Source: Flavobacteriales bacterium (GTDB lineage Bacteria; Bacteroidota; Bacteroidia; CAIKAF01). From it: a stretch of DNA of 64,000 bases. The notes under the pieces are model-generated. The model ran no database searches. It was not told the origin of the DNA and saw only the letters and a list, made by a program, of their open reading frames with translations. This document shows positions 23,880-61,968 of this stretch, in pieces. The DNA lies in assembly GCA_040376605.1 (NCBI GenBank), contig JBEIQI010000001.1, positions 5,191 through 69,190 on the forward strand. Reading direction: 5' to 3'. The position numbers and the translations under genes were made by a program. How positions within the stretch are numbered: position 1 is the first letter of the stretch; each line of letters begins with the position of its first letter.

Positions 23880-24621
23880 CTATGCTCTGGAGAGAAGTCT
23901 TCCAATAATCATTACCTCGAATAAGTGAGTAAAAATAGATTCGATGGCCATGCTATTTCTAACAAAAGGAGCAAATGTACCCTCTGGAGGGTCCATAGAT
24001 GCTACCACATATCCGCTATGGATATAACAGGTATTATAGAGTTTTGAAATGTTAGCATCCGAAACAACAGAGTTAGGGAACACGATGCCCATTACCGCAT
24101 AAATAAAGGTAAATAGGATGATAATAAGCAGAAATATATTTGCGGCCCCCAGCAATGCATCTTTAATCTTTAAGCGTTCACCAAATACATCTGTTACGGC
24201 TTCGTAAAAACTGGTAAAGATCATAATTAAGGTTACGGTAGTAGAAAATCCCAGAATAACACGGTATGTTTGGAAATTGGTTTTTTCTAATCCACTTATA
24301 GTGGCAATAAATATTACAACTGTGGCAACTGTTAATGCGGTAGCTAATACATAAAAATACCAACGTCGATTAATAAAATGATAAAAGGAAAAATAATGAC
24401 ACCGTGGTTAAGGACAATGAGAAAAAAAGATCCATAAACGCAGCGGTGGTTTCGCTGATTAGGTAATTACCAGTACGAGCAGCGGGTACAATAAAAACAT
24501 TGGAAAATAAACTGAGTGATTGACATACCAACAGCCAAATATATAAAGGTACGCGACGCTGATCTATTTTGGGATGTGTACTAGAGGCCATGAATAAAAA
24601 TTGATAGTTAAAGATATACAT
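23880..24621 (-). pseudogene. Polytopic membrane protein (possible ion-channel/pore-loop family) interrupted by a 1-nt frameshift at an A7 tract
   Basis: Track ORFs 24370-24621 (N-terminal part, frame 0) and 23880-24224 (C-terminal part, another frame). The second frame is open from 24457 down to 23880 and hydrophobic. Inserting one T into the T7/A7 run at 24422-24428 joins ...AAFMDLFF to LIVLNHGVIIFPFIILLIDVGYFYVLATALTV..., giving one protein of about 247 aa. ORF 24178-24363 is wrong-frame junk. Confidence 0.6.
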
Positions 24622-41316: not shown

Positions 41317-41349
41317 TTCCTTTTAAAGAAAGTTTTGATTAAAAAGGAA
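41317..41349 (-). terminator. Hairpin spanning the dnaB stop codon (ttcctttt...aaaaggaa), likely a terminator
   Basis: An 8-bp inverted repeat with a 16-nt loop at the dnaB 3' end, followed on the minus strand by ccatttt. Confidence 0.4.
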
Positions 41350-43684: not shown

Positions 43685-44111
43685 AATTGCCATGAATGAA
43701 TCTGTTGAATTTTACAAACAATATATAGGTCAGCGAATCAACACGGCCCCATCTGCTTTTGGAAATTGGCTGAATGGAAAAATTTTAAAAGTAGAGGAGG
43801 ATAGTTTATCCATAGAGTTTGAGGTGCGGGATAATATGACCAACCCGGTAAAACTTCTTCATGGAGGAATGATGGCTGCCTTGATGGATGAAATAATAGG
43901 GATGACAATTTTTGTAAATGGAGAGAAAAACTTCTTTTACAGTATTAGCCTAAATGTTGATTTTATTAGCAACGTAAATGTGGGAGCCAATGTAGTGGTT
44001 ACCTCAAAGATCATCAAGAAAAGTGCAAGGTTGATTCAAGCGGAATGTTATATACATGGTCCCGAAAATAAATTGTTAGCAAAAGCTAGTTCAAATCTAA
44101 TTAGCAGTTAG
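43671..44111 (+). CDS. Hotdog-fold thioesterase, PaaI/4HBT (YbdB-like) family
   Basis: 146 aa. ...PVKLLHGGMMAALMDEIIGMT... is the PaaI-type catalytic motif. Confidence 0.65.
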   Translation: MNSNKIAMNESVEFYKQYIGQRINTAPSAFGNWLNGKILKVEEDSLSIEFEVRDNMTNPVKLLHGGMMAALMDEIIGMTIFVNGEKNFFYSISLNVDFISNVNVGANVVVTSKIIKKSARLIQAECYIHGPENKLLAKASSNLISS

Positions 44112-44122
44112 TTACAGGAACC

Positions 44123-44932
44123 CTATTCTCCGGCATTAATATATTCAAAACCGCTTCCGATTTGTTTCCATAAGACTGCAATTATTCGAATATTTCCCAG
44201 GTCCCATTCTGGTTTTCTAAAAATTCCCTGACGAATTTTAAAGGAAGTATTTTCATTTACCGGAAGGATGTTGACTTGCGCCCCAATTCCATTTGACGCA
44301 GTTGATCCTCGGAGGATATGTTGATGGTTATAATTACCCGCAACTCCTAATTGTGGTGATAAAATATTGTCTTCCACGATATATGCAGTGGTGAAATAAT
44401 TTGAATTGTCTGAAATAAAAAACTTACCATAAATGTTTACAATGATACTATCTGAAGTGGTTGAAAAATTAGCATTCACAGCCCCTTCTGAACTTTCGGC
44501 GGACTCCATGGTTAATGCCGTTAGGATGGCACTTTGGGTCAAAAGAGAAGATTGATTTCCTACACCAAAGTCCGGGAAACCCGCAACATTTAAGGCTGTC
44601 GCAATGTCAATGCCAGCAGGAGTAAAAAGGGTATCCGTGGCATTAGGATGAACCGTTATAAAATAATTATTTGATGGATTTGTTGCCTCCACCTGGTCTA
44701 ATAGATTCAAACCAAAAGTACCACAGGTATTATTTTCGGTATCAGAAAAGAAAAAACAAATAGTGTTTTTGGTTTGCGATGGATAATCACATGATCCATC
44801 ATTTACCTCTGCATTTGGATTGTAATTGGGAGAATTGGGATCTGTACATCCTTTTGTCTTATTATCGCAACTTACCATGGAAATAGTAAAGAATAATAAT
44901 AGACTGATGATAATGTATGATGGACGTATCAT
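44123..44932 (-). CDS. Hypothetical lipoprotein
   Basis: 269 aa. Signal plus lipobox (...ISMVSCDNK), Cys-rich N-terminal region, Asn/Ser-rich body. Overlaps the upstream gene by 4 nt. Confidence 0.45.
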   Translation of the reverse strand: MIRPSYIIISLLLFFTISMVSCDNKTKGCTDPNSPNYNPNAEVNDGSCDYPSQTKNTICFFFSDTENNTCGTFGLNLLDQVEATNPSNNYFITVHPNATDTLFTPAGIDIATALNVAGFPDFGVGNQSSLLTQSAILTALTMESAESSEGAVNANFSTTSDSIIVNIYGKFFISDNSNYFTTAYIVEDNILSPQLGVAGNYNHQHILRGSTASNGIGAQVNILPVNENTSFKIRQGIFRKPEWDLGNIRIIAVLWKQIGSGFEYINAGE

Positions 44933-46143
44933 TTAATAAGTTTAATTTTTCTGCTAATTTGGTCTTGTTCGTAAAATATAGTAACGAGAAACATAAATAT
45001 CCATTGCCCAAGGATACAACAATATATTCCTCCTACTAGGTCAAAACTCTTTAAAAAGAAACTGCATGATGCCAACATGGTTATGGCAGCACCTCCAGCA
45101 CATCGGGATAAAAGTCCGTGATTGTTTTTGTTATAGAAATAAATAACAATTGGAGTATACAGTGTTGAGGGAAATGCAAATAACAAACCGGCAGCCCAAA
45201 ATTCATAACCAATGTTTAACATAAAGAATTGAATGCAAATAAAGTAGGAAATGGAGATAGAAACAACATTCACTAACATTCCCAAAATCAATACTTTCAT
45301 GCGCAGTGAATTGTCCACTTTAATTTTGCTCTTCCTGTCTCTATTATGATAAAATTGTGTGATAAAATTTGGAAGGCTAATGGCAAATAACATAAAGTTC
45401 ATAAAAATTTGATAGGTCGCTTTTTCCGAATCATCAAATTGGGTATATACAAAGAACCGATCTACGGTAAGAATGAGAATAATTGAGAATGAATAAATAA
45501 AATAATTATAAGTAATGAGGTACATTTCTATGTTTATTGTACTCAGTTTACCTTTAATAAAAACTTTATAGTTAAGCAATAAATGAATAGCGCTTTTAGA
45601 AATCTCAGTGAGACCAATGGCAAAAATTAAATACATAAATGACATGTCGTCTAATCGTAAAAAGAAATAAGCAATTCCTACGGACATTCCGGTAATATTA
45701 GCAATAATTGGCTTCCAATCGTTTTTTTCGTAAACATATAATGTTTCGAAACTTTGATTGATAAACTTTCCTGTAAAGAGAAGCAAATAGGATACACAAA
45801 TGATGGGATTATAAGGAGATAAAGCGAGGAATATTAGAAAAATAATGAGCAGTGGCAGTCTGGAATAAAAGCTTTCAACAAAACTATCATATATTTTATT
45901 GGGGAAAGAGGAAAACCTTTTTTGTAAATATTGATTGGATCCCCAGGATAAAATAATGGATGCAATAGAGGCAAAAAACCAAACATCCACTGCCTTGCCC
46001 CATAATTCAATATTTACCATATAGATTGCCAACAAAGGCCATACCGGCTGAAAGATGGGTCCGGAGAATGATCGCAAGGCTTCCATGGCAATGGTTGTCG
46101 CCTTTTTAGGAGAAAGCAGGAATTTCTTCTGAATTAGTTCCAT
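44929..46143 (-). CDS. Polytopic membrane protein, putative MOP/Wzx-type flippase-like
   Basis: 404 aa, about 12 predicted TM helices. Composition and layout are typical of oligosaccharide-lipid flippases, but there is no diagnostic motif. Confidence 0.4.
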   Translation of the reverse strand: MELIQKKFLLSPKKATTIAMEALRSFSGPIFQPVWPLLAIYMVNIELWGKAVDVWFFASIASIILSWGSNQYLQKRFSSFPNKIYDSFVESFYSRLPLLIIFLIFLALSPYNPIICVSYLLLFTGKFINQSFETLYVYEKNDWKPIIANITGMSVGIAYFFLRLDDMSFMYLIFAIGLTEISKSAIHLLLNYKVFIKGKLSTINIEMYLITYNYFIYSFSIILILTVDRFFVYTQFDDSEKATYQIFMNFMLFAISLPNFITQFYHNRDRKSKIKVDNSLRMKVLILGMLVNVVSISISYFICIQFFMLNIGYEFWAAGLLFAFPSTLYTPIVIYFYNKNNHGLLSRCAGGAAITMLASCSFFLKSFDLVGGIYCCILGQWIFMFLVTIFYEQDQISRKIKLIK

Positions 46144-46239
46144 TCAAGATGCAAATTACAAAATATACCTATTGCTTTAACATTACACTCGCACTATTTT
46201 AGGGGTAAACGCTTGTTTTTTATACTTGATAAGGACGGT

Positions 46240-46914
46240 TTAATTAACTTTTAACTCGTATTCCCAAATGAAATTTTTTTCCAACCATGTGTTTCGCGTA
46301 TAAACTAGTTGAGGTTGAAAGCTTTCAATTTCGGCCATTTTATTAATTAAAGTAATGTTGCAGTCATCTGAAAGTACAAGAATTAATTTGCCTTTGATTG
46401 CCAGATATTTTTTTGAATCTCGAAAAAGAAGTTGAAAATAGTTGAGATCTTGTCCGGCGTACCAAGCATGTTCTTCGAGATTGGAAGGATTCTTTGGGAA
46501 ATATGGGGGGTTATTAATGATTAATTCGAAATTCTTCTCTTTAATTTTCTCGAATAAATTAGATTGAACTATTTGCACCATAACATCATTTAAAAGGCAA
46601 TTCGATGAAGTAGTGGACACCGCAACTGGATTGATATCGCAGGCAAATGTGATTGCTTTTTCTTTGGCTGCAAAGATGCATATTGCCCCTGATCCGCATC
46701 CTATTTCCAATACTTTCTTACCTGTCAATGATTGAGTTTTTAGGTATCTGCACATGGTTCTGGTACTAAAAAACAGAGACGGATGAAATATGCCTGGCGG
46801 AATAGATAATTTAAGGCCCATAAATTGAGCCTTCCGTTCTTTTCTGAGGTAAGATTTTGTGACCGGAACTAACCAAGGTTGAATTAACCTTTTAAATATT
46901 TTTTTCCGACTCAT
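46240..46914 (-). CDS. Class I SAM-dependent methyltransferase with NPPY motif (HemK/RsmC-like small-domain MTase)
   Basis: 224 aa. LEIGCGSGAI (motif I) and IINNPPYF (motif IV typical of N-directed MTases). Confidence 0.65.
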   Translation of the reverse strand: MSRKKIFKRLIQPWLVPVTKSYLRKERKAQFMGLKLSIPPGIFHPSLFFSTRTMCRYLKTQSLTGKKVLEIGCGSGAICIFAAKEKAITFACDINPVAVSTTSSNCLLNDVMVQIVQSNLFEKIKEKNFELIINNPPYFPKNPSNLEEHAWYAGQDLNYFQLLFRDSKKYLAIKGKLILVLSDDCNITLINKMAEIESFQPQLVYTRNTWLEKNFIWEYELKVN

Positions 46915-46919
46915 AAATA

Positions 46920-48422
46920 TTAAAATCCTTCAATTTCGGGTTGTCGGTATTTCCATACTTTTTGAAGTACTTTTATTTCATAAGGCATTTGATATGCACT
47001 AAACTTATATCTGGGAGCAGAAATTAACTTGATGGACTTTCTTTTCCATTTATCTAACCTTATATCCGAAACCGTCGGGTAGTAGCCATTTAATACAGTT
47101 TCGAAATTCTTAATCTTATCAATCATATATGGCTTCAGCCATGGGGTAAGTGGGTTTTTCCTTAAATCGAAATTCTCCCAGGTATCATTTATCCAATCCT
47201 CTAATTTATCAGGAAATGTAAAACCACTGGCCTTTACTTGTTCGTATAAATCTGACCCTTCTGTAGGAACCGGACTATATACATAAATGATAATTTCGGT
47301 ATTGGGGTTAATGGATTTGATTTCTTTAATGAATTTGATGTCCTCATCAATTTGTTTATTCACCTGCTTCTCATCGCCCACCGGTATACCGAGTACAAAG
47401 GACATTTCCGGTATTATATCGAACTTTGCCATTCTTTCCGCAAATTTTTTTATTTGAGCCCCAGTTTGTGTACCCCCTTTATCCATCTGTTTTAGGATCT
47501 CATCATTGCCAGTTTCAGCTCCTAGGAATATCATTTTGCAACCGGCTTCACGCATGATTTTAAGACTTTCGTCTTTGTATTTGTCAATGGTGTCGATGCG
47601 GCCTTCGCCCCACCAAATTATTTCCTCCTTTTTTATTAATTCAGAGAATTCAACCGTTCTTTTTTCGGAAACGAAAAAATTGTTGTCAACAAATTCAATC
47701 GCATTCCCCCCATATTGAGTTTTTAAAAATTTAATATCATTATAAATATTGATTGCCGATTTCCCTTTCCAGCGAGCATTATAGATAGGAACTACAGCAC
47801 AGAAGGAGCATGTAAATGGGCATCCAAAGCTGCTATGATAAGCAATGGTTTTACTCCCTAAATATGTTTTACCCAAGTATTTCTTTATAGGGTAAAAAAT
47901 ATTCAATTTCTCATATGGAAATGGGGGCAAACTGTCCTGATCATAAATTCCATCTTTTTTAGTAAAGTGAAGATCTCCATTTTTCTCAAAAATTAAATTG
48001 GAGATATCGCTAAAATCCTTTACACCCACCGAAATTTTCTGAAGTAATTGCGGAAAACATTCGTCACCGGGACCATTTACAATAAAATCAACATATCCTG
48101 ATTTTAAAACTGATTTGGGCTGGTTAGATGGAAAATATCCACCCCAAACTGTGGTAATTTGAGGGTAGGATTCTTTTATTTTTTTGGTGATTGGAATGGC
48201 TTGTTTTAACTGAGGGCCAGGCATTACTGTTGACCCAAAACAAAAAACATCTTTCGTTTCGAGATATTCAAAAATCTTCTTTTCCGGCTCCCTTTCTATA
48301 TTGCCGTCAACGATATAGTATTCAAAGAGTCCTTCGATACTTGCGGCTATTTGAAGAATAGAATTGGGTATTCTTGGCTTTGACGAGCTACTTCTTGGGT
48401 TAAATAGGATTACTCCAGCCAT
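46920..48422 (-). CDS. B12-binding-domain radical SAM protein
   Basis: 500 aa. N-terminal Rossmann-like cobalamin-binding-type domain, then the radical SAM cluster motif CPFTCSFC (CxxxCxxC) with a downstream glycine-rich SAM site. Confidence 0.7.
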   Translation of the reverse strand: MAGVILFNPRSSSSKPRIPNSILQIAASIEGLFEYYIVDGNIEREPEKKIFEYLETKDVFCFGSTVMPGPQLKQAIPITKKIKESYPQITTVWGGYFPSNQPKSVLKSGYVDFIVNGPGDECFPQLLQKISVGVKDFSDISNLIFEKNGDLHFTKKDGIYDQDSLPPFPYEKLNIFYPIKKYLGKTYLGSKTIAYHSSFGCPFTCSFCAVVPIYNARWKGKSAINIYNDIKFLKTQYGGNAIEFVDNNFFVSEKRTVEFSELIKKEEIIWWGEGRIDTIDKYKDESLKIMREAGCKMIFLGAETGNDEILKQMDKGGTQTGAQIKKFAERMAKFDIIPEMSFVLGIPVGDEKQVNKQIDEDIKFIKEIKSINPNTEIIIYVYSPVPTEGSDLYEQVKASGFTFPDKLEDWINDTWENFDLRKNPLTPWLKPYMIDKIKNFETVLNGYYPTVSDIRLDKWKRKSIKLISAPRYKFSAYQMPYEIKVLQKVWKYRQPEIEGF

Positions 48423-48517
48423 GTAAGCATTGGTTTTGGGTAAATATACAAAGATTTTGGCCGGTTAAGGTAGTTTGGTTTACAGCTGTTAGGTAACCAT
48501 TGACACCTAAGAACGAT

Positions 48518-49012
48518 TTAAGTGTCTTTTACTTGATGAGGACGAACCGAAGGTTCATTTAATTTTTTCCTGATACTGTTTGATCTTCTTCTTAATAGCA
48601 TTGAAATAATAATTGATATAGCTGTTGCCCCCAAAACCAAACTAATAAGCGGCTTATGATAAATCCACACCATGGATAGACAGACCATCGTTATGATTAT
48701 ACCTAGTAGAAAGGAAGAAAGTAAAATACCATTTCTTATTTCCTGGTAAGTGAGGGGAATTTTACTCATAAATAGTTTAATAGCCGATAAGATTTGATAA
48801 AAACAACAACTGATAAATAGGAATCCCACTATTCGAATAGACCAATACAACCAATTGTAGTTATTATCATTAAATAAAGGAGTTTGATTAACAGCATGAT
48901 ATTCATTCCATAACAACAAGATGGGTCCGACAGGTAATAAAATGATCCCTCCAATTATCTTTAGAAGATATTTTTTGATCCTCCTCCCACCTGGAATATA
49001 GCTTAAGCTCAT
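48518..49012 (-). CDS. Hypothetical small membrane protein (4 TM)
   Basis: 164 aa hydrophobic ORF, first gene of the minus-strand cluster. Confidence 0.35.
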   Translation of the reverse strand: MSLSYIPGGRRIKKYLLKIIGGIILLPVGPILLLWNEYHAVNQTPLFNDNNYNWLYWSIRIVGFLFISCCFYQILSAIKLFMSKIPLTYQEIRNGILLSSFLLGIIITMVCLSMVWIYHKPLISLVLGATAISIIISMLLRRRSNSIRKKLNEPSVRPHQVKDT

Positions 49013-49166
49013 AATGATGGATTTGTTACGGAAAAGTAAGGTTTTTGTTCGATTACTTTGGATTTTAACTTATTTAATCAAAAAAAATGTTAGTTCAACA
49101 TATTTACAGTTTAAAAATTCACTTAGCACACTACTTTTGTGATGTATCCCAAAATCCTCAATCATT

Positions 49167-49628
49167 ATGCACAAATTATTCATTTTGCCTTTTATCTTAC
49201 TTTCAGTTCTATCTTTAAATGTTACTGCCCAATCAGGTATTGGTAATAATTCTGTTTCTGTAGCAACCAATACCAACGGTGATATTAGTTGGAACGCCAA
49301 TGTGGATGGGCATAACAGAAGAGGTTATATCGATTCTAAAAACTCCAAAGAAGAATGTAATTCGAAGGTTGCTGATGAAGATATTTTAACCCCAACCACC
49401 ATTAGTTTATATGGGAATAGTTTTACTGATGTGTTATTCTTTTCTGGTAATGGCATGGATTTACATACCATTACAATTTTGGATGAAGAGGGAAAAGTTT
49501 TGGTATCAGATCAATATACAAATTATCATTCTATTGATGTTTCCAATTTTGCAAGTGGCACTTATTTGATTGAAATTAATAGAGGGATAAATCGGAAGTC
49601 TTATAGCAAGAAGTTTATCAAAGAATAA
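49167..49628 (+). CDS. Small secreted protein with type-A T9SS C-terminal sorting domain
   Basis: 153 aa. Signal MHKLFILPFILLSVLSLNVTAQ. C-terminus ...ITILDEEGKVLVSDQY...DVSNFASGTYLIEINRGINRKSYSKKFIKE is a Por_Secre_tail. Confidence 0.6.
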   Translation: MHKLFILPFILLSVLSLNVTAQSGIGNNSVSVATNTNGDISWNANVDGHNRRGYIDSKNSKEECNSKVADEDILTPTTISLYGNSFTDVLFFSGNGMDLHTITILDEEGKVLVSDQYTNYHSIDVSNFASGTYLIEINRGINRKSYSKKFIKE

Positions 49629-49670
49629 TCAATTATACTTATCGGTAAAAATCCACCAAGATTTTAAATT

Positions 49671-50957
49671 CTATCGATTGATTAAAGAATTGATGTACTG
49701 CACGCCTAGTAATTTATGAGTAATATCACCGGGTCGTCTTAAATAAACCATAATTGTATAATCATTTTCTGTTTCGGCATAGCTGCCTTCAATTAGGGTA
49801 ATATCTCCATTTCCTGTCTTGGGATCTTTTACGGTATACATATAATTATAATACCCTTGTTTAAAAGGTATTGCTAACCAAAATAAATCACGGTAATTGT
49901 CATAATTCATTTTATAGGTGTCTAACATTTGTCCAAAAGTAAATCCGCCTAAAAGGTAAATCTCTTTTCCCCGATAAGACTCATCGTTGGGTAAGGTAAA
50001 ATATAAAGTAGCATAGTCAGGGTCGATGGTTGTGCTGAACCCATCCTGGTTATAAACGGTATATCTGCCATTAATATCTGGTCGGTTTTGATAATTACGA
50101 AAATTTCGGAGTACTTCATTTCGTAAACGGATATGATATTTGCCTTGCTCTATTTTAATATCTACGATGGGTTCATTGATAATTTGTAATGTTTTAATAT
50201 CAATAAACCGATATTGGTTTCCTGCGGCAAACGAACATTCACCATTGGTATAATTATATTTAACCTCCTTGGTGTTGATGTATTGAGGACTTAGTCCAAT
50301 GATCGCATTATCCCATCGATTGTTCTGAGTGATGTTTACTTTAAAATCGTTGATATAATCCTGAACGTAAATATTCTCAGTATTAATGGTAAAATATAAT
50401 TCCTGATGGGTGTTTCGTAGATCTACCCCACTGGCATACCTAATCTTGGCCTCAGGAAAACTAACCACCGACTCTACAACCATAAACCTTCTGGTAAAAA
50501 CAATTTTTTCTGGATCATTGGTATCAAACACCTTCATAATAAAATTCCCCGAAATGGTAGGCTTCATGAACTCATTTGGAAAGGTAAATTGGTAATGAGT
50601 ATAGGGCTGTGTTACGTTTTGCGAAAAATGAGATTCAATTACATTATACGATTCAAATCCTTGCATATATTGCATATGTAATAGATCGGAAACAGACCAA
50701 TCTGGATTGCAATGAATTACCTGATAACTATAATATTTTAGATCATTATCCCAATCGTCGAATTGAAAAATAAGTTTCTGCGAACTATTCAATTCAATGA
50801 TGTTGTTGGTTTGATCGGAACCAGTTTTATAAACCTCAGGAAAATGAATATTGGATTGGTAAATATAATCCGGGAAAAGGATTGTTTGAGATTTTAATGG
50901 AATGTAACTAACTAAAACTCCTATGGCAAATACGATTCCTTGTTTGATTCGATTCAT
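49671..50957 (-). CDS. Hypothetical secreted beta-rich protein adjacent to a T9SS type-B cargo gene (possibly T9SS-associated)
   Basis: 428 aa, signal peptide. Does not show the PorP/SprF N-terminal motif. Family not resolved by eye. Confidence 0.4.
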   Translation of the reverse strand: MNRIKQGIVFAIGVLVSYIPLKSQTILFPDYIYQSNIHFPEVYKTGSDQTNNIIELNSSQKLIFQFDDWDNDLKYYSYQVIHCNPDWSVSDLLHMQYMQGFESYNVIESHFSQNVTQPYTHYQFTFPNEFMKPTISGNFIMKVFDTNDPEKIVFTRRFMVVESVVSFPEAKIRYASGVDLRNTHQELYFTINTENIYVQDYINDFKVNITQNNRWDNAIIGLSPQYINTKEVKYNYTNGECSFAAGNQYRFIDIKTLQIINEPIVDIKIEQGKYHIRLRNEVLRNFRNYQNRPDINGRYTVYNQDGFSTTIDPDYATLYFTLPNDESYRGKEIYLLGGFTFGQMLDTYKMNYDNYRDLFWLAIPFKQGYYNYMYTVKDPKTGNGDITLIEGSYAETENDYTIMVYLRRPGDITHKLLGVQYINSLINR

Positions 50958-51050
50958 TTGATTTCGATTAACTTTCTCAAAGCTAACGCAGAATAGGAAA
51001 ATATTGTGCCAAATCGAGAAATTTTTTGAGTAGAAATGAATTTGAGTAGA

Positions 51051-53618
51051 TTAACGTAACAAATTAACCATCCCTCTGAGGCTTATTTCCTGACCATTTG
51101 CCATAACAATGTAAATGTCGTAAACATATACATCAACAGGGGCAGGAATTCCATCAAATGTACCATCCCACCCAATGTTTTTATCGTTAGAAAAGAAAAT
51201 AGCTTGACCCCAACGATTATGAATTCTCATTTCGAATGATTGAACATTTCCCACGTGTATCATGAAATTTTGGTTCAACTCATCAAAATTGGGTGAAAAG
51301 GAATTGGGCACAAATACATTACAATCTACTTCAACAGTAATTGAATAAAATTCAGTACAGCCTCTATCATCGGTTACCGCCGCTGTATAGGTGGTAGATT
51401 TGCTGGGTGATGCAGCTGGATCTTCACATGTTGAGCAGTCAAGTGTAGTGCCATTGTCCCAGGCGAAGCTATAATTCCCTGATCCGCCAGTAACGTCAAT
51501 TGCTAAGGGGGAAGTGTCACCACAATACATAAAATATTCGGTAACTCCGGCGATATTGATTTTTGTAGGTTCAATAATGGTTAATTGTACAGGCAGAACA
51601 CAGTTATTATTGTCTGTAACGGTATAATTATAAACTCCTGCAGGCATATTAGTAAGTTGTGGCCCCATGCTATATACAAAAGGTGCTACCCCGCCAGAGA
51701 CGTTGAGCGAAACGGCCCCATCTATTTCCCCAAAACAAGAAATATTTGTACTAGTAGAAAGGTCTGTAAGCAATGCAGGTTCGGATAAGGTAATGTCAAG
51801 AACTTCTTGTTGCCCTGCCGCATCCGTTATGGTAACTTGATAACTTCCGGCAATTAGTTGAGTTGCTAAATTGGAAATTAACCCAGGATCATGCGACCAG
51901 CTATAGCTATAAGGTGCGCAGCCTGCTGAAGTTTGAATGGTAATTTCCCCATCACTTAATCCGAAGCAGCTGATATCAAAACCATTATAATCAGAGGTGG
52001 TATAGCTATTAATCATTGGAGCCGGTAAAACATCCACAGTAAATTGACAAGTTGTTGTATTGCCCACAATGTCTTCTGCTATTAAATCTACGAGCTGCTG
52101 ACCAACATCGGCACAACTAAAGATAGATTGACTGATGGTAATTGTATTGATGCCACAGTTGTCGGTACTTCCATTATCCGCCTGCGCAGCGGTAATGGAG
52201 CCATCTCCATTGGCATCAAGCTGTAATTGTAAATTCTGACAAAGAGCCGTTGGGTTAATGGTATCTGCCAATGTTAACGTAAAGCTAAAAGTGGAATCGA
52301 AGTTACTAACCTGACCATCATTAATGGTGATGGTAATTAATGAGCTACCAACGGCACCCCCAATTGGAGTTAAAGTGATATCACGATTAGCTCCAACTCC
52401 GCCAAAAACAATATTGGCTGCTGGAATCACAGCAGGGTTCGATGAAGTGGCCGATAAGGTTAGAACACCTGCTGCCTGTTGATTATCTGCTACATCAAAA
52501 AGAATATTGAGAGGGGAGGTATTTGGACAAACAATAGTATCTGAAGGTGGATTTACAATGTATGGTGGGGTATTGATAATGATACCATTGGCCCTGATAG
52601 CAAAATTATAAGGGTTTGGAGGACTGCATGATGAGTAAGCATCCGAATTGGGAATATTAATAGTTCCATTTATGATGCCTGTTACCCCTGGGGCAAATTG
52701 AATATCAAAGGGGACAGAGCCTCCCGGTGGAATGATATTAGTTGCGGGTTGATTTAAAACACTAAATCCAACTCCTGTAACTGTAATATAAGGAACACCC
52801 GTTAAGGTAAGTGGGGATTCTCCAATATTGTGGATATAAAAAGTTTTTGTTGACGAAAATCCAACGCCAACATTCCCAAAATCAGTATTGTCTGCGACAA
52901 TCGGAGTAACATCGTTATCTGGAATAATAAGAGCATTGCCCTGAACCTGTGGTTGAGCAATACTAACTATTTTAATATCATCAACGGCCCAACCCCTGTC
53001 TGCAACCGCCTCATCCGAATGAAATGTATATCTTAACTGAAAGGTCGGTACGTTATCAAATGCCGAAATATTGGCGATTACCTTGGTCCAGGTTGTTTTA
53101 GGATTAAACCAGGCTGGTGTATTATTATAATAAAAGGGGGTAGAAGATCCATTTTGAGACATGTTACCATCGTATGGAATGCACATTTGAGCTGCGGTAA
53201 TTTTGGTCCAGGTTACTCCATTGTGCGACCATTCTATAAAGCCCCCATCCCAATTTCCGGTTTCCGAACGCATTTGCATCCAAAATTCAAGTCTGCAATT
53301 GTCATAACCAGTTAAGTCGATTACCGGAGAAACCAAACGATAGACAATATAATTTCCGGCTCCTGCCTGGGCATAATTATTATTTCCATTTACATAAAAG
53401 CACCCTCCGCCACCTCCGGTATGATCCGTGGCCGGCACAACGGGCACCACTGCCAGCCAATTATATCCAGCAACATTGGCAGGAAATAGTCTTCCGGTAT
53501 TGGTCCATCCTCCTAAAGCATTACAATTATCATAAAATACAGTAGTTTGGGCATGGCTCCTGCCTACCATAAATAACGTAGAAGCAACGAAGAGTATCGG
53601 AAAAAATTTACTTGGTTT
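51051..53618 (-). CDS. Large cell-surface adhesin-like protein with type-B T9SS C-terminal domain (CHU_C / gliding-motility-associated CTD), HYR and SprB-type repeats
   Basis: Track ORF 51051-53690. The likely start is MKPSKFFPILFVASTLFMVGRSHAQTT. C-terminus CNVFVPNSFSPNFDELNQNF...WDGTFDGIPAPVDVYVYDI is the T9SS type-B sorting domain. Internal ...NGDGSITAAQADNGSTDNCGI... is HYR-like. N-terminal MAM/lectin-like region. Confidence 0.7.
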   Translation of the reverse strand, partial: KPSKFFPILFVASTLFMVGRSHAQTTVFYDNCNALGGWTNTGRLFPANVAGYNWLAVVPVVPATDHTGGGGGCFYVNGNNNYAQAGAGNYIVYRLVSPVIDLTGYDNCRLEFWMQMRSETGNWDGGFIEWSHNGVTWTKITAAQMCIPYDGNMSQNGSSTPFYYNNTPAWFNPKTTWTKVIANISAFDNVPTFQLRYTFHSDEAVADRGWAVDDIKIVSIAQPQVQGNALIIPDNDVTPIVADNTDFGNVGVGFSSTKTFYIHNIGESPLTLTGVPYITVTGVGFSVLNQPATNIIPPGGSVPFDIQFAPGVTGIINGTINIPNSDAYSSCSPPNPYNFAIRANGIIINTPPYIVNPPSDTIVCPNTSPLNILFDVADNQQAAGVLTLSATSSNPAVIPAANIVFGGVGANRDITLTPIGGAVGSSLITITINDGQVSNFDSTFSFTLTLADTINPTALCQNLQLQLDANGDGSITAAQADNGSTDNCGINTITISQSIFSCADVGQQLVDLIAEDIVGNTTTCQFTVDVLPAPMINSYTTSDYNGFDISCFGLSDGEITIQTSAGCAPYSYSWSHDPGLISNLATQLIAGSYQVTITDAAGQQEVLDITLSEPALLTDLSTSTNISCFGEIDGAVSLNVSGGVAPFVYSMGPQLTNMPAGVYNYTVTDNNNCVLPVQLTIIEPTKINIAGVTEYFMYCGDTSPLAIDVTGGSGNYSFAWDNGTTLDCSTCEDPAASPSKSTTYTAAVTDDRGCTEFYSITVEVDCNVFVPNSFSPNFDELNQNFMIHVGNVQSFEMRIHNRWGQAIFFSNDKNIGWDGTFDGIPAPVDVYVYDIYIVMANGQEISLRGMVNLLR

Positions 53619-53737
53619 CATAACTGTTAAGCCAAAAGTAATAAAACTTATATGAAAAGAGGACAATTTGCTCAAATTAGCTTCAGCCATGGATTATTGC
53701 AAACAATAAAATAGATAACTTTACGTATTATACCGTT

Positions 53738-53938
53738 ATGAAAAGGATTCTCATTTATTGTGGACTGATATTAATATTGGGCTCTTGCGGCGACCAATGT
53801 ATTAGTTGCACCGAAATCAGCGGATATCCAAATGCCGTTATTTGCAAGGATACTTACGAAACCACCATTGATGACCAAGCTCCGGTTTGGGCAGAATATC
53901 AAGAAACCGCAGTTACTGCAGGCTGTATTAAGCAATAA
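53738..53938 (+). CDS. Small Cys-rich lipoprotein (hypothetical)
   Basis: 66 aa. Signal plus lipobox (LILGSCGD), 6 Cys in the 45-aa mature region. Confidence 0.35.
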   Translation: MKRILIYCGLILILGSCGDQCISCTEISGYPNAVICKDTYETTIDDQAPVWAEYQETAVTAGCIKQ

Positions 53939-53964
53939 AATTGGCGGCTTTCAGTTATAAATCT

Positions 53965-53972
53965 TATTTTTG
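53965..53972 (+). promoter_or_regulatory. -7 element TAttTTTG 8 nt upstream of the lipoprotein-signal ATG (53980)
   Basis: TAnnTTTG match. Implies a very short leader. Confidence 0.35.
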
Positions 53973-53979
53973 CCAACCA

Positions 53980-56519
53980 ATGCATTTGCGTCGCCATATA
54001 CCTGCAGGATTAGTACTTATTGCTGTGCTCTTATTATCAACGGGCTGTAGTACCAAAAAAATACGGGACTTGCCAGGTTTTGGCATAATCTAAATACCAA
54101 GTATAACGGTTATTTTAATGGTAATGAAGCCATTAAGCTGGGAATGCAAGATTTAAGCAAAACCAGAAAGGACGATTATTCAAAGATTATCCCAACCTTC
54201 GATTATGGGGATCGCTCCAATTGGCCTGCCATGAATACCAACGCGGATCGTGCCATTAAAAAAGCGGTGATCATGATCAAAAAGCACAGCATGTTTATCA
54301 ATGGCAAACAATACAATCGCTGGATTGATGATTGTTATATGTTAATGGGCAAGGCTAATTTTTTCAAATTAGAACATTCTTTAGGGGCCAATCAATTAAA
54401 ACATGTTGCTGATAATAGTGAAAAACAATTTACGAAGGATGAGGCTAAAATTTGGATGGTAAGAACCTATAACGAAATGGGTGAATTTGCAGAATCCGGC
54501 ACCATCATTAGAGGTATCGACAGGGGTGGGGTAGATAGAAAATTATTACCAGAATATTATTCGGTTATTGCTGATTATTATATCCGTCAAAAAGATTGGG
54601 ATAAGGCATTGGATAATATTGATGAAGCTATTAAATGGTCGAAGAGCAAAAAAAGAAATGGTCGTCTTGAATTTATTCGCGGACAGATTTATGAAATGAT
54701 GGGCGATAATAAAAAGGCCTATGATTCTTATGAGAAGGTCATCAAATATCGTCCGGAATATGTAATGGAGTTTCAAAGCCGCATCAACATGGCCCGAACC
54801 GCCGAAAATAGCAATAACGAGAGTTTAAGAAAGACCCTCAGGAAAATGTTGAGAGATGGGAAAAATATTGAATATCTCGATCAGGTTTATTATGCAATAG
54901 CCCTTATTGATTTAAAAGAAGAAAAAAATCCTGAAGCAATTATCAACCTTAACAAGTCCCTAAGAAATAGTATCGACAACCAAAATCAACAAGCACTGTC
55001 TCATTTAAAATTGGCCGAAATTTATTTGGCTGATAGGAAGTATGAATTGGCCCAAGGTTATTATGATAGTACGGCTTCTTTATTAGCGAAGGATCATCCA
55101 AAATATGATGAGGTGATGCGTTTAAAAGAAAACCTGACCTTATTGGTTCAGAATATTAGAATTGTGGAAACGCAGGATAGTTTGCAAAGACTTTCTAAAA
55201 TGGATAGTACCGAGTTGGTTGATTATTTTACCAAGTATGTGGAAGATTTGAAACAGGCTGATGAGGATGCAAAAAATAATCCGAATACTAATCCAGTAAA
55301 TTTTAATACCAGTCAATCAAGTAATGGCAAATGGTATTTTACAAGTCCCCAATCATTAACCCTGGGTTCTAATGAATTTAAGAAAACCTTTGGGCAAAGA
55401 CCTCTGGAAGATAACTGGAGAAGACAAAATAAAGCGGTAAGTTTTTTAAATGACGATCCGGTTGATACGGGAGGTACAGACTTGGTAGACCTGCGTTATG
55501 ATGTAAACACTTATGTGAGTCAGGTCCCCAAAAACGATTCTGATTTATATGCTTCTAATGAGTTGATTTATAAAGCCCTTTATAATATTGGAACGATTTA
55601 TAAGGATAAAATTTTGGATTATCCCAAATCAGCCGAAGCTTATGAGGAATTGGTAAAACGATGTGATAAAAACAATCCGCAATATTTCCCGATCACTTAT
55701 TTTCAGCTTTATTCCTTGTATAAAGGTTTGAAAAAAGAAGAGCTGATGAATAAGTATAAGGATATTATACTTACCGAGTATGCTAATAGTGATTATGCGG
55801 CCATTATTTTAGACCCTGAAGGTTTTGCCCAAAAGAATGAAACCAATGATGCTGCTTCACCAGCTTATACCGCGGCGTATAATTTGTACAAGTCGAATGA
55901 TTTTACAGGCAGTTTAAATAGTTGTATTACCGCCTTACAACAATATCCAAAATCGCCTTTACTTCATCGTTTTGCCTTGTTAAAAGCCTTATGTATTGAT
56001 AAAATTAATGGGAGAGAGGTATTTAAAACAGAATTGCAAGTGGTAATTGATAACTATAAAGGAACAGAAAGTGCCTCCACTGCAAAAAGACTATTGGATG
56101 CGATAAATGGCAAAACGGATGACAATACCAATCCAGAAATTAATGTTAAAGCAGAATTTGTTTTTGATGCTAAATCGGAGCATTTTGTAATACTTTATAT
56201 CCCAGATGCAACCAAAAAAGTGGATGGTGCGGTAGGTAAATTGATTGAATTTAATGATCTTGAATTTGAGGGTCGAGAATATTCGGTATCGAACTCTATT
56301 TTGCCTCAATCCGGACAAGTTATTTTAATTCGAAAGTTTGCCAATTCCACCGAAGCGCTTCAATACGTAAGTAAATACGATGACAAAGGAATGGTGCTTA
56401 AACTCAACCTTAATTCGCCAAGTAAAATTATGGCAATTAGTAAAGCCAATTTTGCGACTCTAATGAAAACGCCATCAATGGCCGAGTACCAGAATTTTTA
56501 TACTGAAAACTATAAATAG
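53980..56519 (+). CDS. TPR-repeat lipoprotein, putatively PorW/SprE-family T9SS component; signal peptide is out of frame with the body because of a 1-nt deficit in an A7 tract
   Basis: ATG at 53980 encodes the lipoprotein signal MHLRRHIPAGLVLIAVLLLSTGCSTKK, then stops after 37 codons. The long frame (open from 54051, track ORF 54144-56519, 791 aa, multiple TPR-like repeats) joins perfectly if the A7 run at 54055-54061 is read as A8 (...STGCSTKKNTGLARFWHNLNTKYNGYFNG...). Confidence 0.55.
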
Positions 56520-56535
56520 AGAAGGGTTTACTGTT

Positions 56536-56901
56536 ATGGCCAAAACGACTAAAAAGAGCGATAAACCAAATTTTATAAATGTCCCTAACCAATTAAATGC
56601 GGGGGCTGTAATCGATGGAAATGTAAAGTTGGAAGGCCATTTAAGGCTAGATGGAAAGATTATTGGGGATTTAACCTGCACGGGAAAAGTGGTTGTGGGT
56701 GAAAAGGGGGAGGTTTCCGGAAATTTAATTTGCGAAAGTGCAGATATAATGGGTTTGGTGAATGGAGACATCAAGGTGAACACAAATACCTCTTTGTTCG
56801 CAAAGTCTAAAGTAATTGGTAATATTTATACCATCACCATTAATATAGAACCCGGTGCCATTTTTAATGGAAAGTGTATTATGGGTTCTCATGAATCATA
56901 A
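56536..56901 (+). CDS. Bactofilin family cytoskeletal protein
   Basis: 121 aa. Repetitive beta-helix pattern with periodic G..V/I..G (GAVIDGNVKLEGHLRLDGKIIGDLTCTGKVVVGEKGEVSGNLICESADIMGLVNGDIKV). Confidence 0.65.
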   Translation: MAKTTKKSDKPNFINVPNQLNAGAVIDGNVKLEGHLRLDGKIIGDLTCTGKVVVGEKGEVSGNLICESADIMGLVNGDIKVNTNTSLFAKSKVIGNIYTITINIEPGAIFNGKCIMGSHES

Positions 56902-57130
56902 TTTGGGATCATCACCTCAAAAATCGAATGGGCCCAAGTCCAACCAATGGATTCGATATTCCGGAATGGGACTTCAAATGCTTGTTATCATTGGGTTGGG
57001 TGTTTGGGGAGGATATAAACTAGATAAAATTTATCACACCGAATCAATATTTACTATAGTTTTGTCCCTGGTTTCGGTTATATTATCAATGGCCTTGGTA
57101 ATTAGAGAGTTTACAAATAGAAAAAAATAG
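56891..57130 (+). CDS. AtpZ/AtpI-like small membrane protein preceding the ATP synthase genes
   Basis: The likely start is the internal Met (MNHNLG...). YSGMGLQMLVIIGLGVWGGYKLD matches the 'ATPase_gene1' small-protein motif. Confidence 0.5.
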   Translation: MNHNLGSSPQKSNGPKSNQWIRYSGMGLQMLVIIGLGVWGGYKLDKIYHTESIFTIVLSLVSVILSMALVIREFTNRKK

Positions 57131-57131
57131 C

Positions 57132-57503
57132 GTGAATAACAAGTTAAAAAATTACATCATTTATATTTGTCTAATAACCATTGCCTTAATGGTAGGTTAT
57201 TATTTTTTTAAGGATAAACTGGCCCTACAAACGGCTTATATTATTCCGGCCTTTTTCCTTATCACCTTAGTAGGGCATATGATCTTAATGCGCGCTGTAA
57301 CAAGGGATGCCAAGAAGTTCTATATTAATTTTATTGGGGCAATGGCTTTTAAAATGTTGGCTTATTTCTTTTTTCTAACCATTATGTTCCTTGCCTACAA
57401 GGAGATTAATACCGATTTTCTAGTGGTCTTTATGTCGGTATACCTTGTCTATACGGTGTTTGAAATGATCTATGTTTATCCAATTGCTCGTAAGAACAAT
57501 TAA
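57132..57503 (+). CDS. ATP synthase protein I-like hydrophobic protein (hypothetical)
   Basis: 123 aa, 4 TM, positioned between the atpZ-like gene and atpB. Confidence 0.4.
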   Translation: MNNKLKNYIIYICLITIALMVGYYFFKDKLALQTAYIIPAFFLITLVGHMILMRAVTRDAKKFYINFIGAMAFKMLAYFFFLTIMFLAYKEINTDFLVVFMSVYLVYTVFEMIYVYPIARKNN

Positions 57504-57753
57504 CTAGTGGTTCTGGTGCAATAGGTTAAAAAAAGAATCTCCCACCGGGTATTTATAGAAGTGTCGCTGATTTTAACAATTAAATATTGCTCGTACATAG
57601 CGTTGAGCCAATTAAATCATTCGTAAGGGGCTGCTATTGCTCGGTTTCTTGATAATTTTCAGGGTTTTAAAAAAAATAGAAAATAATTATCCTTTTAGAT
57701 TCCTTTTGGGACTATATTTTTCTACTTTTGCGGTGCGAAAAAAAAAGTTTGGT

Positions 57754-58944
57754 ATGAATTTTTTTAAAAACCTTGGTCTCTCTGCTGTTTTATTTGTTTT
57801 TGGGTTCATTATGCCAAACCTTTTTGCCCAAAATCATGATCACCCTGCAGATACTGGAGCCGTTCATGAAGATCATGTAGAAGCCAATCATGGAAATAAA
57901 GAGGAAGCTGAAGAAGAAGATTATTTTGGTTCATTCGTATTTCATCATATTTCGGATGATTATATGTTCCAAATTTTTGATGATATCTACTGTCCATTAC
58001 CCGTAATTATTTTTGAACCAGGATCTGGATTAGATGTTTTCTTATCCAATCAATTATTGGAGAAAGATGAAAATCATTTATCAAGAGGAAAATATTTTTA
58101 CCACCACGGAAATTTGGTTATCGCGGAATTAGATGAACATGGTCATGCCAAGATGGATAGTTTAGGACATCCTGTTGGTAAACATGAAGCTAAACTATTG
58201 GATGTTGGGAAATCGGATGTATTCTATAATTTTTCTATCACCAAAAATGTTTTTGGAATCCTTTTGGCCTGTGCGGTTATTGTTCTTATTTTCTTTAGCG
58301 TGGCTTCTAAATACAAGAAGAACCCAAACTCAGCACCACGTGGATTACAAGGAGCTCTTGAGCCTTTAATTTTATATGTACAGGACGATGTGGTGAAGCC
58401 ATCTATAGGCAAGAAATATGAAAGATTCTTACCATATTTATTAACCCTATTCTTCTTTATTTGGATCAATAACATGATAGGGTTGATTCCATTTTTCCCG
58501 GGGAGTGCTAACGTTACCGGAAATATTGCGGTAACCTTTACTCTTGCATTTTTTGCTTTGATTATACAAGTTGTGAATGGGAATAAAAACTTCTGGGGTC
58601 ATATTTTTTGGTTTCCAGGAGTGCCAGTGCCGGTAAAACTTTTACTTGCGGTAATTGAATTTATTGGATTATTTACTAAGCCGTTTTCATTAATGATACG
58701 TTTGTTTGCGAACATTACCGCAGGTCATATCATCATTATGAGTATCATCGGTATTACGTTTGTTATGAAGAGTTTGGCCCTTGGATTTGCCACTTCTATT
58801 TTTTCAGTAGCGATGTTCGTTCTGGAATTATTAGTAGCGCTTATCCAGGCTTATATATTTACTTTGCTTACATCATTAATGATAGGATCGGCTTTGGAAG
58901 AGGGGCATCACGATCATCATGAAACGGCGGAAGCGAAACATTAA
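57754..58944 (+). CDS. atpB: F0F1 ATP synthase subunit a
   Basis: Track ORF 57637. Better start MNFFKNLGLSAVLFVFGFI (57754). Conserved ...MIRLFANITAGHIIIMS... (essential Arg) and C-terminal ...LIQAYIFTLLT... His-rich N- and C-terminal tails. Confidence 0.85.
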   Translation: MNFFKNLGLSAVLFVFGFIMPNLFAQNHDHPADTGAVHEDHVEANHGNKEEAEEEDYFGSFVFHHISDDYMFQIFDDIYCPLPVIIFEPGSGLDVFLSNQLLEKDENHLSRGKYFYHHGNLVIAELDEHGHAKMDSLGHPVGKHEAKLLDVGKSDVFYNFSITKNVFGILLACAVIVLIFFSVASKYKKNPNSAPRGLQGALEPLILYVQDDVVKPSIGKKYERFLPYLLTLFFFIWINNMIGLIPFFPGSANVTGNIAVTFTLAFFALIIQVVNGNKNFWGHIFWFPGVPVPVKLLLAVIEFIGLFTKPFSLMIRLFANITAGHIIIMSIIGITFVMKSLALGFATSIFSVAMFVLELLVALIQAYIFTLLTSLMIGSALEEGHHDHHETAEAKH

Positions 58945-58959
58945 GTTGGATTTTTTTAA

Positions 58960-59226
<267 letters not shown>

Positions 59227-59234
59227 AAAAACGA

Positions 59235-59270
59235 AGCGGTGTTCCGGCGATTGGCCGGAACCGCTTTTTT
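59235..59270 (+). terminator. GC-rich hairpin plus T-run between atpE and atpF (intra-operon attenuator or terminator)
   Basis: agcggtgttccggc-gatt-ggccggaaccgc followed by TTTTTTG. Confidence 0.7.
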
Positions 59271-59295
59271 GTATTAAAGAAAAAAGATTAAGAAT

Positions 59296-59790
59296 ATGGA
59301 ATTGTTAAACCCCAGTTTTGGACTTGTTGTTTGGACCACATTTTCATTTTTGATATTGTTGGTTTTATTGCGTCGTTTTGCATGGAAGCCTATTTTGGGT
59401 ACCATCAAAAAGAGAGAAGAATCCATTAACAATGCATTAAACTCTGCCAAAGAAGCTGAGCTAAAATTAACTGCTTTAAAATCAGAAAATGAAGCATTAT
59501 TGGCTGAAGCTAGAAAAGAAAGAGATGCTATTTTGAAGGAAGCTCGTGAGGCAAAAGAGAGAATTATTAATGAGGCCAAAGGAATTGCTCAAGAAGAAGC
59601 TGCTCGATTAACCGCAAGTGCTAGAGAGAATATTAACAACGAAAAAATGAAAGCCGTTACCGAGTTACGTAACCAGGTGGCCATTTTATCAGTGGAAATT
59701 GCGGAGAAGATCTTGAAGGAAAAAATGGCTGATAGCGCTAAGCAAACGGAGGTGATGGAAAATATTATGAAAGAGGTAACCTTAAATTAA
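59296..59790 (+). CDS. atpF: F0F1 ATP synthase subunit b
   Basis: 164 aa. N-terminal TM (FGLVVWTTFSFLILLVLL), then a long charged coiled-coil. Confidence 0.8.
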   Translation: MELLNPSFGLVVWTTFSFLILLVLLRRFAWKPILGTIKKREESINNALNSAKEAELKLTALKSENEALLAEARKERDAILKEAREAKERIINEAKGIAQEEAARLTASARENINNEKMKAVTELRNQVAILSVEIAEKILKEKMADSAKQTEVMENIMKEVTLN

Positions 59791-59797
59791 AAAAGAA

Positions 59798-60370
59798 ATG
59801 GCAGGTTATAGTGTTTTAGCTTCCAGATATGCTCATTCGTTGTTTTCACTAGCGCAGGAGAAAGGATTAACCAATGAGGTAGAGGCTGATTTGATTGGTA
59901 TAAAAAATGCGTTTCATGAAAGTGCAGATTTGAGAAGTTTTTTAAAGAGTCCTGTTATCAATATCAATACCAAAAAAGCTGCTTTAGAAAAAGCTTTTGG
60001 TCCTCATGTTTCAAAACTTACTTTGTTGTTTTTAGATAAGTTGGTGGAGGCAAGAAGAGAATATTATATTGCTGAAGTAGCTGAAGCTTTTAGAGATTCA
60101 TTTAAAAAGTTGAATGGAGTAGTTACTGCTAAAGTAATTACTGCCGCTCCAATGAATGATAAAATTAGAGCCGAAGTAACCAGAATTGTTAAAGATAATA
60201 AGGAGTTTATCAATGCATCATCAATTGAAATTGAAGAGAAAATTGATCCAAGTTTAATTGGAGGTATCATCATTAATGTTGGAGACAAGCAAATTGATGC
60301 AAGCTTCAGCAGAATGATTAATGAGTTTAAAATGGCATTTAGCCATAACTATTACGTAAAAGAATTTTAA
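59798..60370 (+). CDS. atpH: F0F1 ATP synthase subunit delta (OSCP)
   Basis: 190 aa. ...ASRYAHSLFSLAQEKG... N-terminal OSCP pattern. Position between b and alpha. Confidence 0.75.
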   Translation: MAGYSVLASRYAHSLFSLAQEKGLTNEVEADLIGIKNAFHESADLRSFLKSPVININTKKAALEKAFGPHVSKLTLLFLDKLVEARREYYIAEVAEAFRDSFKKLNGVVTAKVITAAPMNDKIRAEVTRIVKDNKEFINASSIEIEEKIDPSLIGGIIINVGDKQIDASFSRMINEFKMAFSHNYYVKEF

Positions 60371-60393
60371 TAAGATTTTAAATACACATTTCT

Positions 60394-61968
60394 ATGGCAG
60401 AAATTAAGGCAACAGAAGTAACAGCAATTTTAAGAGAACAACTTTCGGGTTTTAAGTCTCATGCTGAATTAGAAGAGGTAGGTACTGTATTACAAATTGG
60501 TGATGGAGTTGCCCGTATCTTTGGATTAAATAATGTAGAATCTGGGGAGTTGATCGAGTTTCATAATGGTTTACGTGCCATCGTATTGAATCTTGAAGAG
60601 GACCACGTGGGTGCCGTATTATTAGGGGAAGCAAAAGGAATTAAAGAAGGTGATACCGTTAAACGTACCCGTAAAATTGCTTCTATTAAAGTAGGTGATG
60701 GCATGTTAGGTCGTGTTATTGATACTTTAGGAACTCCTATTGATGGAAAAGGCCCATTAACTGGTGAATTATTAGAAATGCCATTAGAAAGAAAGGCTCC
60801 CGGAGTTATTTACCGTCAACCAGTAAATGAGCCATTGCAAACGGGTATCAAAGCGATTGATGCGATGATTCCAATTGGTCGTGGACAAAGAGAGTTGATC
60901 ATTGGTGACCGTCAAACGGGTAAAACTGCCGTGGCCATTGATACCATTATTAATCAAAAAGAATTTTACGATAGAGGCGAACCTGTATTTTGTATTTATG
61001 TGGCAGTTGGTCAAAAATCATCAACTGTTGCCGCTATTGCAAATACATTAGAGAAATATGGTGCTATGCCTTATAGTGTTATTGTATCTTCATCTGCTGC
61101 AGATCCTGCTCCTATGCAGTTTTATGCGCCATTTGCTGGTGCCGCAATCGGAGAATATTTCCGTGATACCGGTCGTCCTGCATTAATTATTTATGATGAC
61201 TTATCGAAACAAGCCGTAGCTTATCGTGAGGTATCTTTATTATTACGTAGACCACCGGGACGTGAAGCTTATCCTGGAGACGTGTTCTACTTACATAGCC
61301 GTTTGCTTGAAAGAGCTGCCAAGGTAATTGCCAATGATGAGATTGCATCTCAAATGAACGATTTACCTGAATCATTAAAGGGTAGAGTAAAAGGAGGGGG
61401 TTCTTTAACAGCTCTTCCGATTATCGAAACTCAAGCGGGTGACGTTTCAGCTTATATTCCTACTAACGTAATTTCTATTACCGACGGACAAATATTCCTT
61501 GAATCGAATTTATTTAATGCGGGTGTTCGTCCTGCCATTAACGTAGGTATTTCGGTATCTCGTGTAGGAGGAAATGCTCAAATTAAATCGATGAAAAAGG
61601 TTGCTGGTACTTTAAAATTAGACCAGGCTCAATATAGAGAGTTAGAGGCTTTCTCTAAATTCGGTTCGGATTTAGATGCATCTACCAAATCGGTATTGGA
61701 TAAAGGATCTCGTAACGTGGAAATTCTAAAGCAAGGGCAGTTTTCTCCATCATCTGTAGAAAAACAAATTGCCATTATTTATGCAGGAACAAAAAATTTA
61801 TTGAGAAATGTTCCAATCAATAAAGTAAAAGAATTTGAAGCGGATTATTTAGGGGTATTGGAAGCTACGCATCCTGAAGTATTAGATGGTTTACGTAAGG
61901 GTCAGTACAACGATGAGATCGAGAAAGTATTAACCAAGGTGGCTGCTGATGTAGCTGCTAAGTATTAA
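60394..61968 (+). CDS. atpA: F0F1 ATP synthase subunit alpha
   Basis: 524 aa. Walker [16 protein letters not shown], ...[16 protein letters not shown]... and other alpha-specific motifs. Confidence 0.9.

Follow-up and report, generated by a model that had tools for sequence, protein, structure and literature searches.

The window, the 64-kb stretch of Flavobacteriales DNA analyzed here, carries porW/sprE, the gene for a periplasmic outer-membrane lipoprotein of the T9SS, in two pieces that lie in different reading frames. Translation from the ATG at 53980 gives a lipoprotein leader, MHLRRHIPAGLVLIAVLLLSTGCSTKK, followed by IRDLPGFGII and a stop codon at 54091-54093, for a total of 37 codons. 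A second frame is open from 54051 to the stop codon at 56517-56519, and its first start codon, the ATG at 54144, opens an ORF of 791 amino acids. The run of A's at 54055-54061 is exactly seven bases long, and insertion of one A at the run produces an uninterrupted protein of 846 amino acids (…GCSTKKNTGLARFWHNLNTKYNGYFNG…). A preliminary description of positions 54040-54100 had reported both the leader from 53980 with the body in another frame and the fusion of the two when A7 is read as A8. All of the reported elements are present in the sequence, and the fused protein matches the PorW/SprE profile. We conclude that the break is a real property of the window sequence and not a chance pattern of ORFs. 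The features at issue are as follows.

53980..56519, + strand: porW/sprE, gene for the T9SS periplasmic outer-membrane lipoprotein, with a 1-base deletion inside; the A8 version encodes 846 aa
53980..54093, + strand: 5' fragment ORF, by direct translation a type II (lipoprotein) signal peptide MHLRRHIPAGLVLIAVLLLSTGC plus STKK, then 10 out-of-frame codons and a stop
54055..54061, + strand: A7 run, coding Lys-Lys-Asn (AAA AAA AAT) of the CSTKKNT motif; A8 in all other conspecific contigs
54144..56519, + strand: 791-aa ORF, the body as the gene caller gives it, without the signal peptide, the lipid-anchor Cys, and conserved residues 24-55
24380..24383, - strand: second window-private frameshift, in the gene (23881-24591) for a 236-aa membrane protein; A4 on the + strand (T4 in sense) versus A3 in 8 of 8 contigs

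The A8 reconstruction matched the NCBIfam equivalog model NF052312 (T9SS_PorW_SprE) with a score of 623.1 bits against a cutoff of 250, and the identity first proposed for the gene, a SprE/PorW-like T9SS lipoprotein, is thereby supported. Residues 17-704 of the reconstruction aligned to positions 2-715 of the 716-position profile. As the match already covers part of the signal peptide, which precedes the frameshift, both pieces come from a single gene. Moreover, Pfam models for tetratricopeptide repeats (TPR_2, 1.2e-12; TPR_12, 1.4e-08; and others) matched over residues 194-366. A type II signal peptide with a lipobox Cys and a Ser at +2 is predicted from the leader (…LLLSTG-C-S-TKK…, read directly from 53980-54060), where the criterion of a Cys followed by Ser or Gly at +2 was taken from PMC8754138 and applied to the sequence by eye. 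PorW is a periplasm-facing lipoprotein of the outer membrane and one of three essential T9SS lipoproteins, and the lipobox Cys is conserved across all members of the family, usually with Ser next to it (PMC8754138). In the 20 closest homologues, residues 24-55 (STKKNT..RFWH.NT.YNGYFNGN) are among the most conserved positions. A product begun at Met 54144, with neither signal peptide nor lipid anchor nor residues 24-55, would be expected to be nonfunctional.

The reconstructed protein thus resembles PorW of Porphyromonas gingivalis and SprE of Flavobacterium johnsoniae in its end-to-end profile match, its type II signal peptide, its lipobox Cys-Ser, its TPR arrays, and the presence nearby of a T9SS plug protein and of cargo bearing a CTD, all in agreement with the family description in PMC8754138. 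It differs from them in that a 1-base deletion splits the window copy. Its length of 846 aa is that of the shorter, Flavobacteriia-type form; SprE-type proteins are reported to lack the D6 domain found at the C terminus of P. gingivalis PorW (PMC8754138). By precomputed Pfam hits on identical loci, the neighbors are a Por_Secre_tail protein (49167-49628), a T9SS_plug_1st protein (49671-50957), and a SprB/CHU_C protein (51051-53621), and the plug gene and cargo genes near porW are intact.

Other genes flank porW on both sides. Directly upstream, at 53738-53938, is a 66-aa ORF with a lipoprotein-like leader (MKRILIYCGLILILGSCGDQC…) that was called in all conspecific loci and belongs to no Pfam family. 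Directly downstream is a bactofilin gene (PF04519; 56536-56901), followed by an AtpI-like gene and then the F-type ATP synthase operon. The bactofilin gene is also next to porW in a sister lineage with 78% identity (L023, 2943-3305), and the adjacency of the two genes appears to be conserved.

Tract length in conspecific assemblies

Outside the window, eight A's with identical flanks were found in every conspecific contig for which DNA was at hand (8 of 8; L001-L007 and L028). The eight contigs came from JGI, ENA, and Logan, and the two ENA contigs carry MEGAHIT-style names (k141_...). For seven of the eight, L001-L007, identity to the window is 99.73-99.82% over 10-20 kb. At the protein level, a search with the A8 reconstruction returned P0001, an 846-aa protein whose listed identity is 100% at 100% query coverage, although the two really differ by T579S. 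The cluster of P0001 holds the full-length 846-aa protein and near-identical alleles on 48 contigs (JGI, ENA, Logan, and NCBI), and the contig index places P0001 in 55 blocks of the collection. Another protein of the cluster, P0131, is identical to the A8 reconstruction at every residue.

The contig that encodes P0131 is L028 (ENA ERZ17175168, k141_1342111; 32,103 bp, with "cov_10" in its MEGAHIT-style name), and it is the closest relative of the window at this locus. Over window positions 43980-60556 the two are 99.976% identical, the differences being three mismatches and a single gap, located at the A tract. All 30 substitutions that set the window apart from L001-L007 are also present in L028, as are two intergenic indels at 53655 and 59259, and we conclude that the window and L028 are of the same lineage. 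The three mismatches are private to L028, as the window agrees with all other contigs at those positions. Thus, the missing A is the sole private change of the window in 16.6 kb. The indels at 53655 and 59259 had themselves been candidates for window-private changes and were ruled out by their presence in L028; they are real intergenic differences between strains.

We note that L028 and a second locus, L019, are parts of a single ENA contig (k141_1342111). That contig is 99.976% identical to the window over 43980-60556 but only 98.5% identical, with seven gaps, over 30514-42951. Either the genome is a mosaic produced by recombination or the assembly is a chimera of mixed strains.

Frameshifted forms of the gene were also sought among recorded proteins. 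A frameshift anywhere upstream of Met 56 would cause a gene caller to report the 791-aa body, and the 791-aa forms of six alleles were therefore informative when looked up among approximately 15 billion proteins. Only the form belonging to the window was recorded, once, on a 74,356-bp NCBI/ENA contig that we take to be the source of the window; the 791-aa forms of the five other alleles were absent from the same set. The 37-aa leader product of an A7 tract and the 36-aa product of an A9 tract were both absent as well, a weak negative, as such short ORFs are seldom called. When the contig index was queried for the exact 791-aa product, no match was returned, a negative that says little, as that index differs from the one used for the cluster look-up. 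A 790-aa protein of the sister lineage (P0018, 78% identity) was considered as a second OFF allele and was ruled out, as the DNA of L023 has A8 and an intact leader. Its short product reflects the start codon chosen by the gene caller because of an overlapping call on the minus strand.

Finally, a pattern scan of a metagenome contig collection for the tract with 6 to 10 A's gave no match. A protein-guided scan of the same collection returned distant orthologues only, which indicates that it holds no conspecific DNA. A scan of a genome contig collection gave three orthologues with 76-78% identity.

Tract composition, phase variation, and frameshifting

Contingency loci undergo translational phase variation by means of poly-A, poly-G, or poly-C tracts in Neisseria, Haemophilus, Campylobacter, and Helicobacter. 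The tract in porW might likewise be an evolved contingency locus, in which slippage between A8 (ON) and A7 or A9 (OFF) toggles T9SS secretion and gliding at high frequency and the window happens to have been captured OFF. The tract directly follows the signal-peptide codons in the 5' coding region, where tracts that cause translational phase variation typically lie, and as in simple-sequence contingency loci, the length of a 5' coding homopolymer sets the frame. Moreover, four of six orthologues carry an uninterrupted A8 or A9. How far such conservation speaks for a switch depends on what the encoded peptide and the codon usage of the genome would produce on their own.

The peptide C-S-T-K-K-N-T, TKKN included, is invariant in the 20 closest homologues. 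DNA was compared for six orthologues with 76-78% identity, and the tract took the form of A8, A9, AAAAAGAAT, or AAGAAGAAT. Specifically, A8 appeared as ACC AAA AAA AAT in two orthologues and as ACC AAA AAA AAC in one, A9 appeared as ACA AAA AAA AAT in one, and AAG broke the run in the remaining two (ACC AAA AAG AAT and ACT AAG AAG AAT). In the genes of the window, AAA makes up 74% of Lys codons, AAT makes up 76% of Asn codons, and AAA-AAA accounts for 54% of Lys-Lys pairs. Four uninterrupted runs in six are about what this codon usage predicts, and as judged by that comparison the tract appears no more conserved than expected. Thus, conservation of TKKN together with the preference for AAA and AAT explains the run without selection on the DNA. 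Runs of A or T of at least 7 bases are also common in the window (36% G+C), which has 63 of them, 49 in coding sequence, and the porW tract is unexceptional among them.

Phase variation of porW is highly unlikely on this evidence. Tract length was uniform across eight DNA loci and 48 contigs at the protein level, the OFF products of the five other alleles were absent from the protein set searched, and the run is interrupted in two orthologues. Unlike at contingency loci, there is no tract-length polymorphism among the assemblies, conservation does not exceed what codon usage predicts, and the target is a core component of a machine rather than a surface antigen or a modification enzyme. The phase-variable tract that the preliminary description had offered as one of two explanations therefore finds no support in the other assemblies. 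The same description had allowed that orthologues might also carry a split gene with its own start for the body, and every orthologue proved to be intact.

The run could also be a site of programmed -1 ribosomal frameshifting or of transcriptional slippage, such that the split gene would be the functional state. tRNA-Lys on AAA AAA is a classic slippery combination, and a -1 slip past the second AAA would restore the wild-type …TKKNTGL… exactly, as read from the sequence. The genes of conspecifics and orthologues, however, are all single in-frame ORFs with no conserved two-frame layout, and the heptamer in the 0 frame is C-AAA-AAA and not X-XXY-YYZ. Moreover, the downstream 79 nt (54062-54140) fold with -16.2 kcal/mol (z = -0.95), no better than shuffled sequences. 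Programmed frameshifting is thus extremely improbable. Leaky -1 rescue of an A7 allele, were such an allele real, would at most be conceivable.

A second private frameshift and the origin of the missing A

The missing A in porW is not the only frame-breaking change confined to the window. The 236-aa membrane protein encoded at 23881-24591 is conserved, has no Pfam family, and is found in full-length forms on 49 contigs. In the window, one extra base at 24383 splits its gene into ORFs of 73 and 114 aa; the comparison in this region was made without a contig of the same lineage, none having been found. The 74,356-bp contig that carries the 791-aa product also has the 114-aa fragment on record. 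The preliminary description had pointed to another gene with an A7 run and a -1 shift like those of porW, which we could not confirm: the second frameshift is a +1 in a short run (A4 versus A3). No further defect was found in either porW or the 236-aa gene.

Other differences along the window were listed with conspecific contigs that span nearly all of it. Four indels, at 25573, 30249, 53655, and 59259, are common to the window and at least one other assembly, and all four are intergenic. In loci that diverge further, the indels come in compensating pairs or are a 3-base event. Substitutions between the window and the other strains number 91 synonymous, 41 nonsynonymous, and 6 intergenic, which looks like the pattern of purifying selection. 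Only two indels are found in the window alone, A8 to A7 in porW and A3 to A4 at 24383, and both are frame breaking. Thus, reading frames are kept by the changes of demonstrably natural origin and broken by the two unique to this contig, and two consensus errors are the most economical account.

We consider it probable (roughly 65%) that the missing A is a homopolymer indel error in the consensus, made during sequencing or assembly. An origin there and not in the cell is strongly favored, although not proven, and it is the second of the two explanations first put forward for the tract. It is supported by A8 in 8 of 8 contigs, L028 among them, by the 48 contigs that encode the intact protein, and by the second private frameshift. 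The true porW/sprE would then be an ordinary, intact gene with eight A's at 54055, and the deposited consensus of one contig would have lost one of them, so that the frames of leader and TPR body disagree only in the deposited text. No specialized element would be involved: the run would simply be how Thr-Lys-Lys-Asn after the lipobox Cys is coded with a preference for AAA and AAT at 36% G+C. Homopolymer indel errors that break gene calls are documented for long-read and low-coverage consensus sequences of metagenome-assembled genomes (PMC9262707). The window resembles those cases in having a 1-base indel in an A run in one assembly only, absent from independent assemblies of the same lineage, and in having a second private frame-breaking indel on the same contig.

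Some observations argue against a consensus error. The window differs from the cases in PMC9262707 in its low apparent rate, with two private indels in 64 kb and one discrepancy among 63 long A/T runs, and in that one of the indels lies in a run of only 3 to 4 bases. The contig is not riddled with homopolymer errors, as 62 of its 63 A/T runs of at least 7 bases agree with the comparators, and the change at 24383 is not a classic failure at a long homopolymer. Moreover, two broken genes of approximately 60 is also within the range of real pseudogenes. A residual rate of two errors in 64 kb is nonetheless plausible.

Alternatively, a real slipped-strand mutation might have shortened the tract from A8 to A7 in the clone or population that was sampled, giving a porW null allele and a T9SS-defective cell. 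Homopolymers are natural hot spots of 1-base indels, and the accuracy of the contig at the other long A/T runs is consistent with a real change at this one. Such an event would have to be very recent, as porW has no other damage and A8 is found in L028, of the closest lineage. The allele could be neutral and transient, or it could have been selected, for example by a phage that uses T9SS-dependent surface structures. Phage pressure on Flavobacterium readily selects frameshifts in genes for the T9SS and for gliding: phage-resistant isolates of F. psychrophilum carry frameshift and nonsense mutations in such genes, and a frameshift by poly-A insertion in another F. psychrophilum gene was judged readily reversible (PMC9804748). 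Isolates from laboratory phage challenge were mutated in gldK, gldL, gldM, sprA, gldD, gldH, or gldJ, and sprE/porW was not among the genes hit (PMC9804748). A real A7 allele would resemble those mutants as a frameshift that knocks out a core T9SS component at a site able to slip back. It would be unlike them in that it was seen once, with no phenotype or phage context. Reversibility would apply in a trivial sense only, as any homopolymer slip can revert.

We regard a real null allele as unlikely, although it deserves more weight than the other alternatives. The A7 allele occurs in no other assembly, PorW is an essential T9SS lipoprotein (PMC8754138), and the plug and cargo genes close by are intact. 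Moreover, if the allele were real, an unrelated gene within the same 64 kb must also have acquired a genuine frameshift, independently and in a run of 3 bases, yet the window has no private substitution in the 16.6 kb that it has in common with L028. It is more doubtful still that A7 is both real and the majority form in the sampled lake population, such that an uncultured freshwater member of the Flavobacteriales toggles its whole T9SS by poly-A slippage in porW. If true, the toggling would parallel, in a natural population, the reversible T9SS and gliding mutations that phage drive in F. psychrophilum cultures. A real allele of any kind would add a modest, useful case of T9SS loss by slippage in the field, an event of a known kind with no new mechanism.

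With a consensus error as the favored explanation, porW/sprE should be annotated as intact, and the organism should not be scored as T9SS defective or as phase variable in secretion. There is nothing new in the porW tract itself, and the value of the analysis is in the corrected annotation and in a flag on the indel quality of the contig. The second spurious-looking frameshift, at 24383, calls for caution with pseudogene counts taken from the assembly.

Minor observations along the window

A scan for homopolymers between two open frames also returned an A7 run at 57121-57127, upstream of the ATP synthase operon, between an AtpI-like ORF (56855-57130) and the ORF of the next small membrane protein. 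We considered this run, the likeliest match for the second A7 gene of the preliminary description, as a -1 frameshift and rejected it. The AtpI-like ORF has a natural end there (…FTNRKK*), identical in seven independent assemblies.

Two products in the cluster of the 236-aa protein are shorter than full length: P0142, of 184 aa, on a 32,782-bp JGI contig, and P0143, of 114 aa, on a 1,664-bp JGI contig. They could be due to start-codon calls, to contig-end effects, or to further frameshifts.

Three clusters of dense, mostly synonymous substitutions set the window apart from other strains, at 2795-3332, 13552-14210, and 50478-50718, against a background that is 99.7-99.9% identical. The clusters look like imported recombination tracts.

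The intergenic indel at 53655 is an A4/A5 polymorphism upstream of the SprB/CHU_C adhesin gene (51051-53690). In the A4 lineage, which comprises the window and L028, the ORF of the adhesin appears 23 codons longer (879 versus 856 aa). The true start is probably the Met at 53621, which opens a signal peptide (MKPSKFFPILFVAST…).
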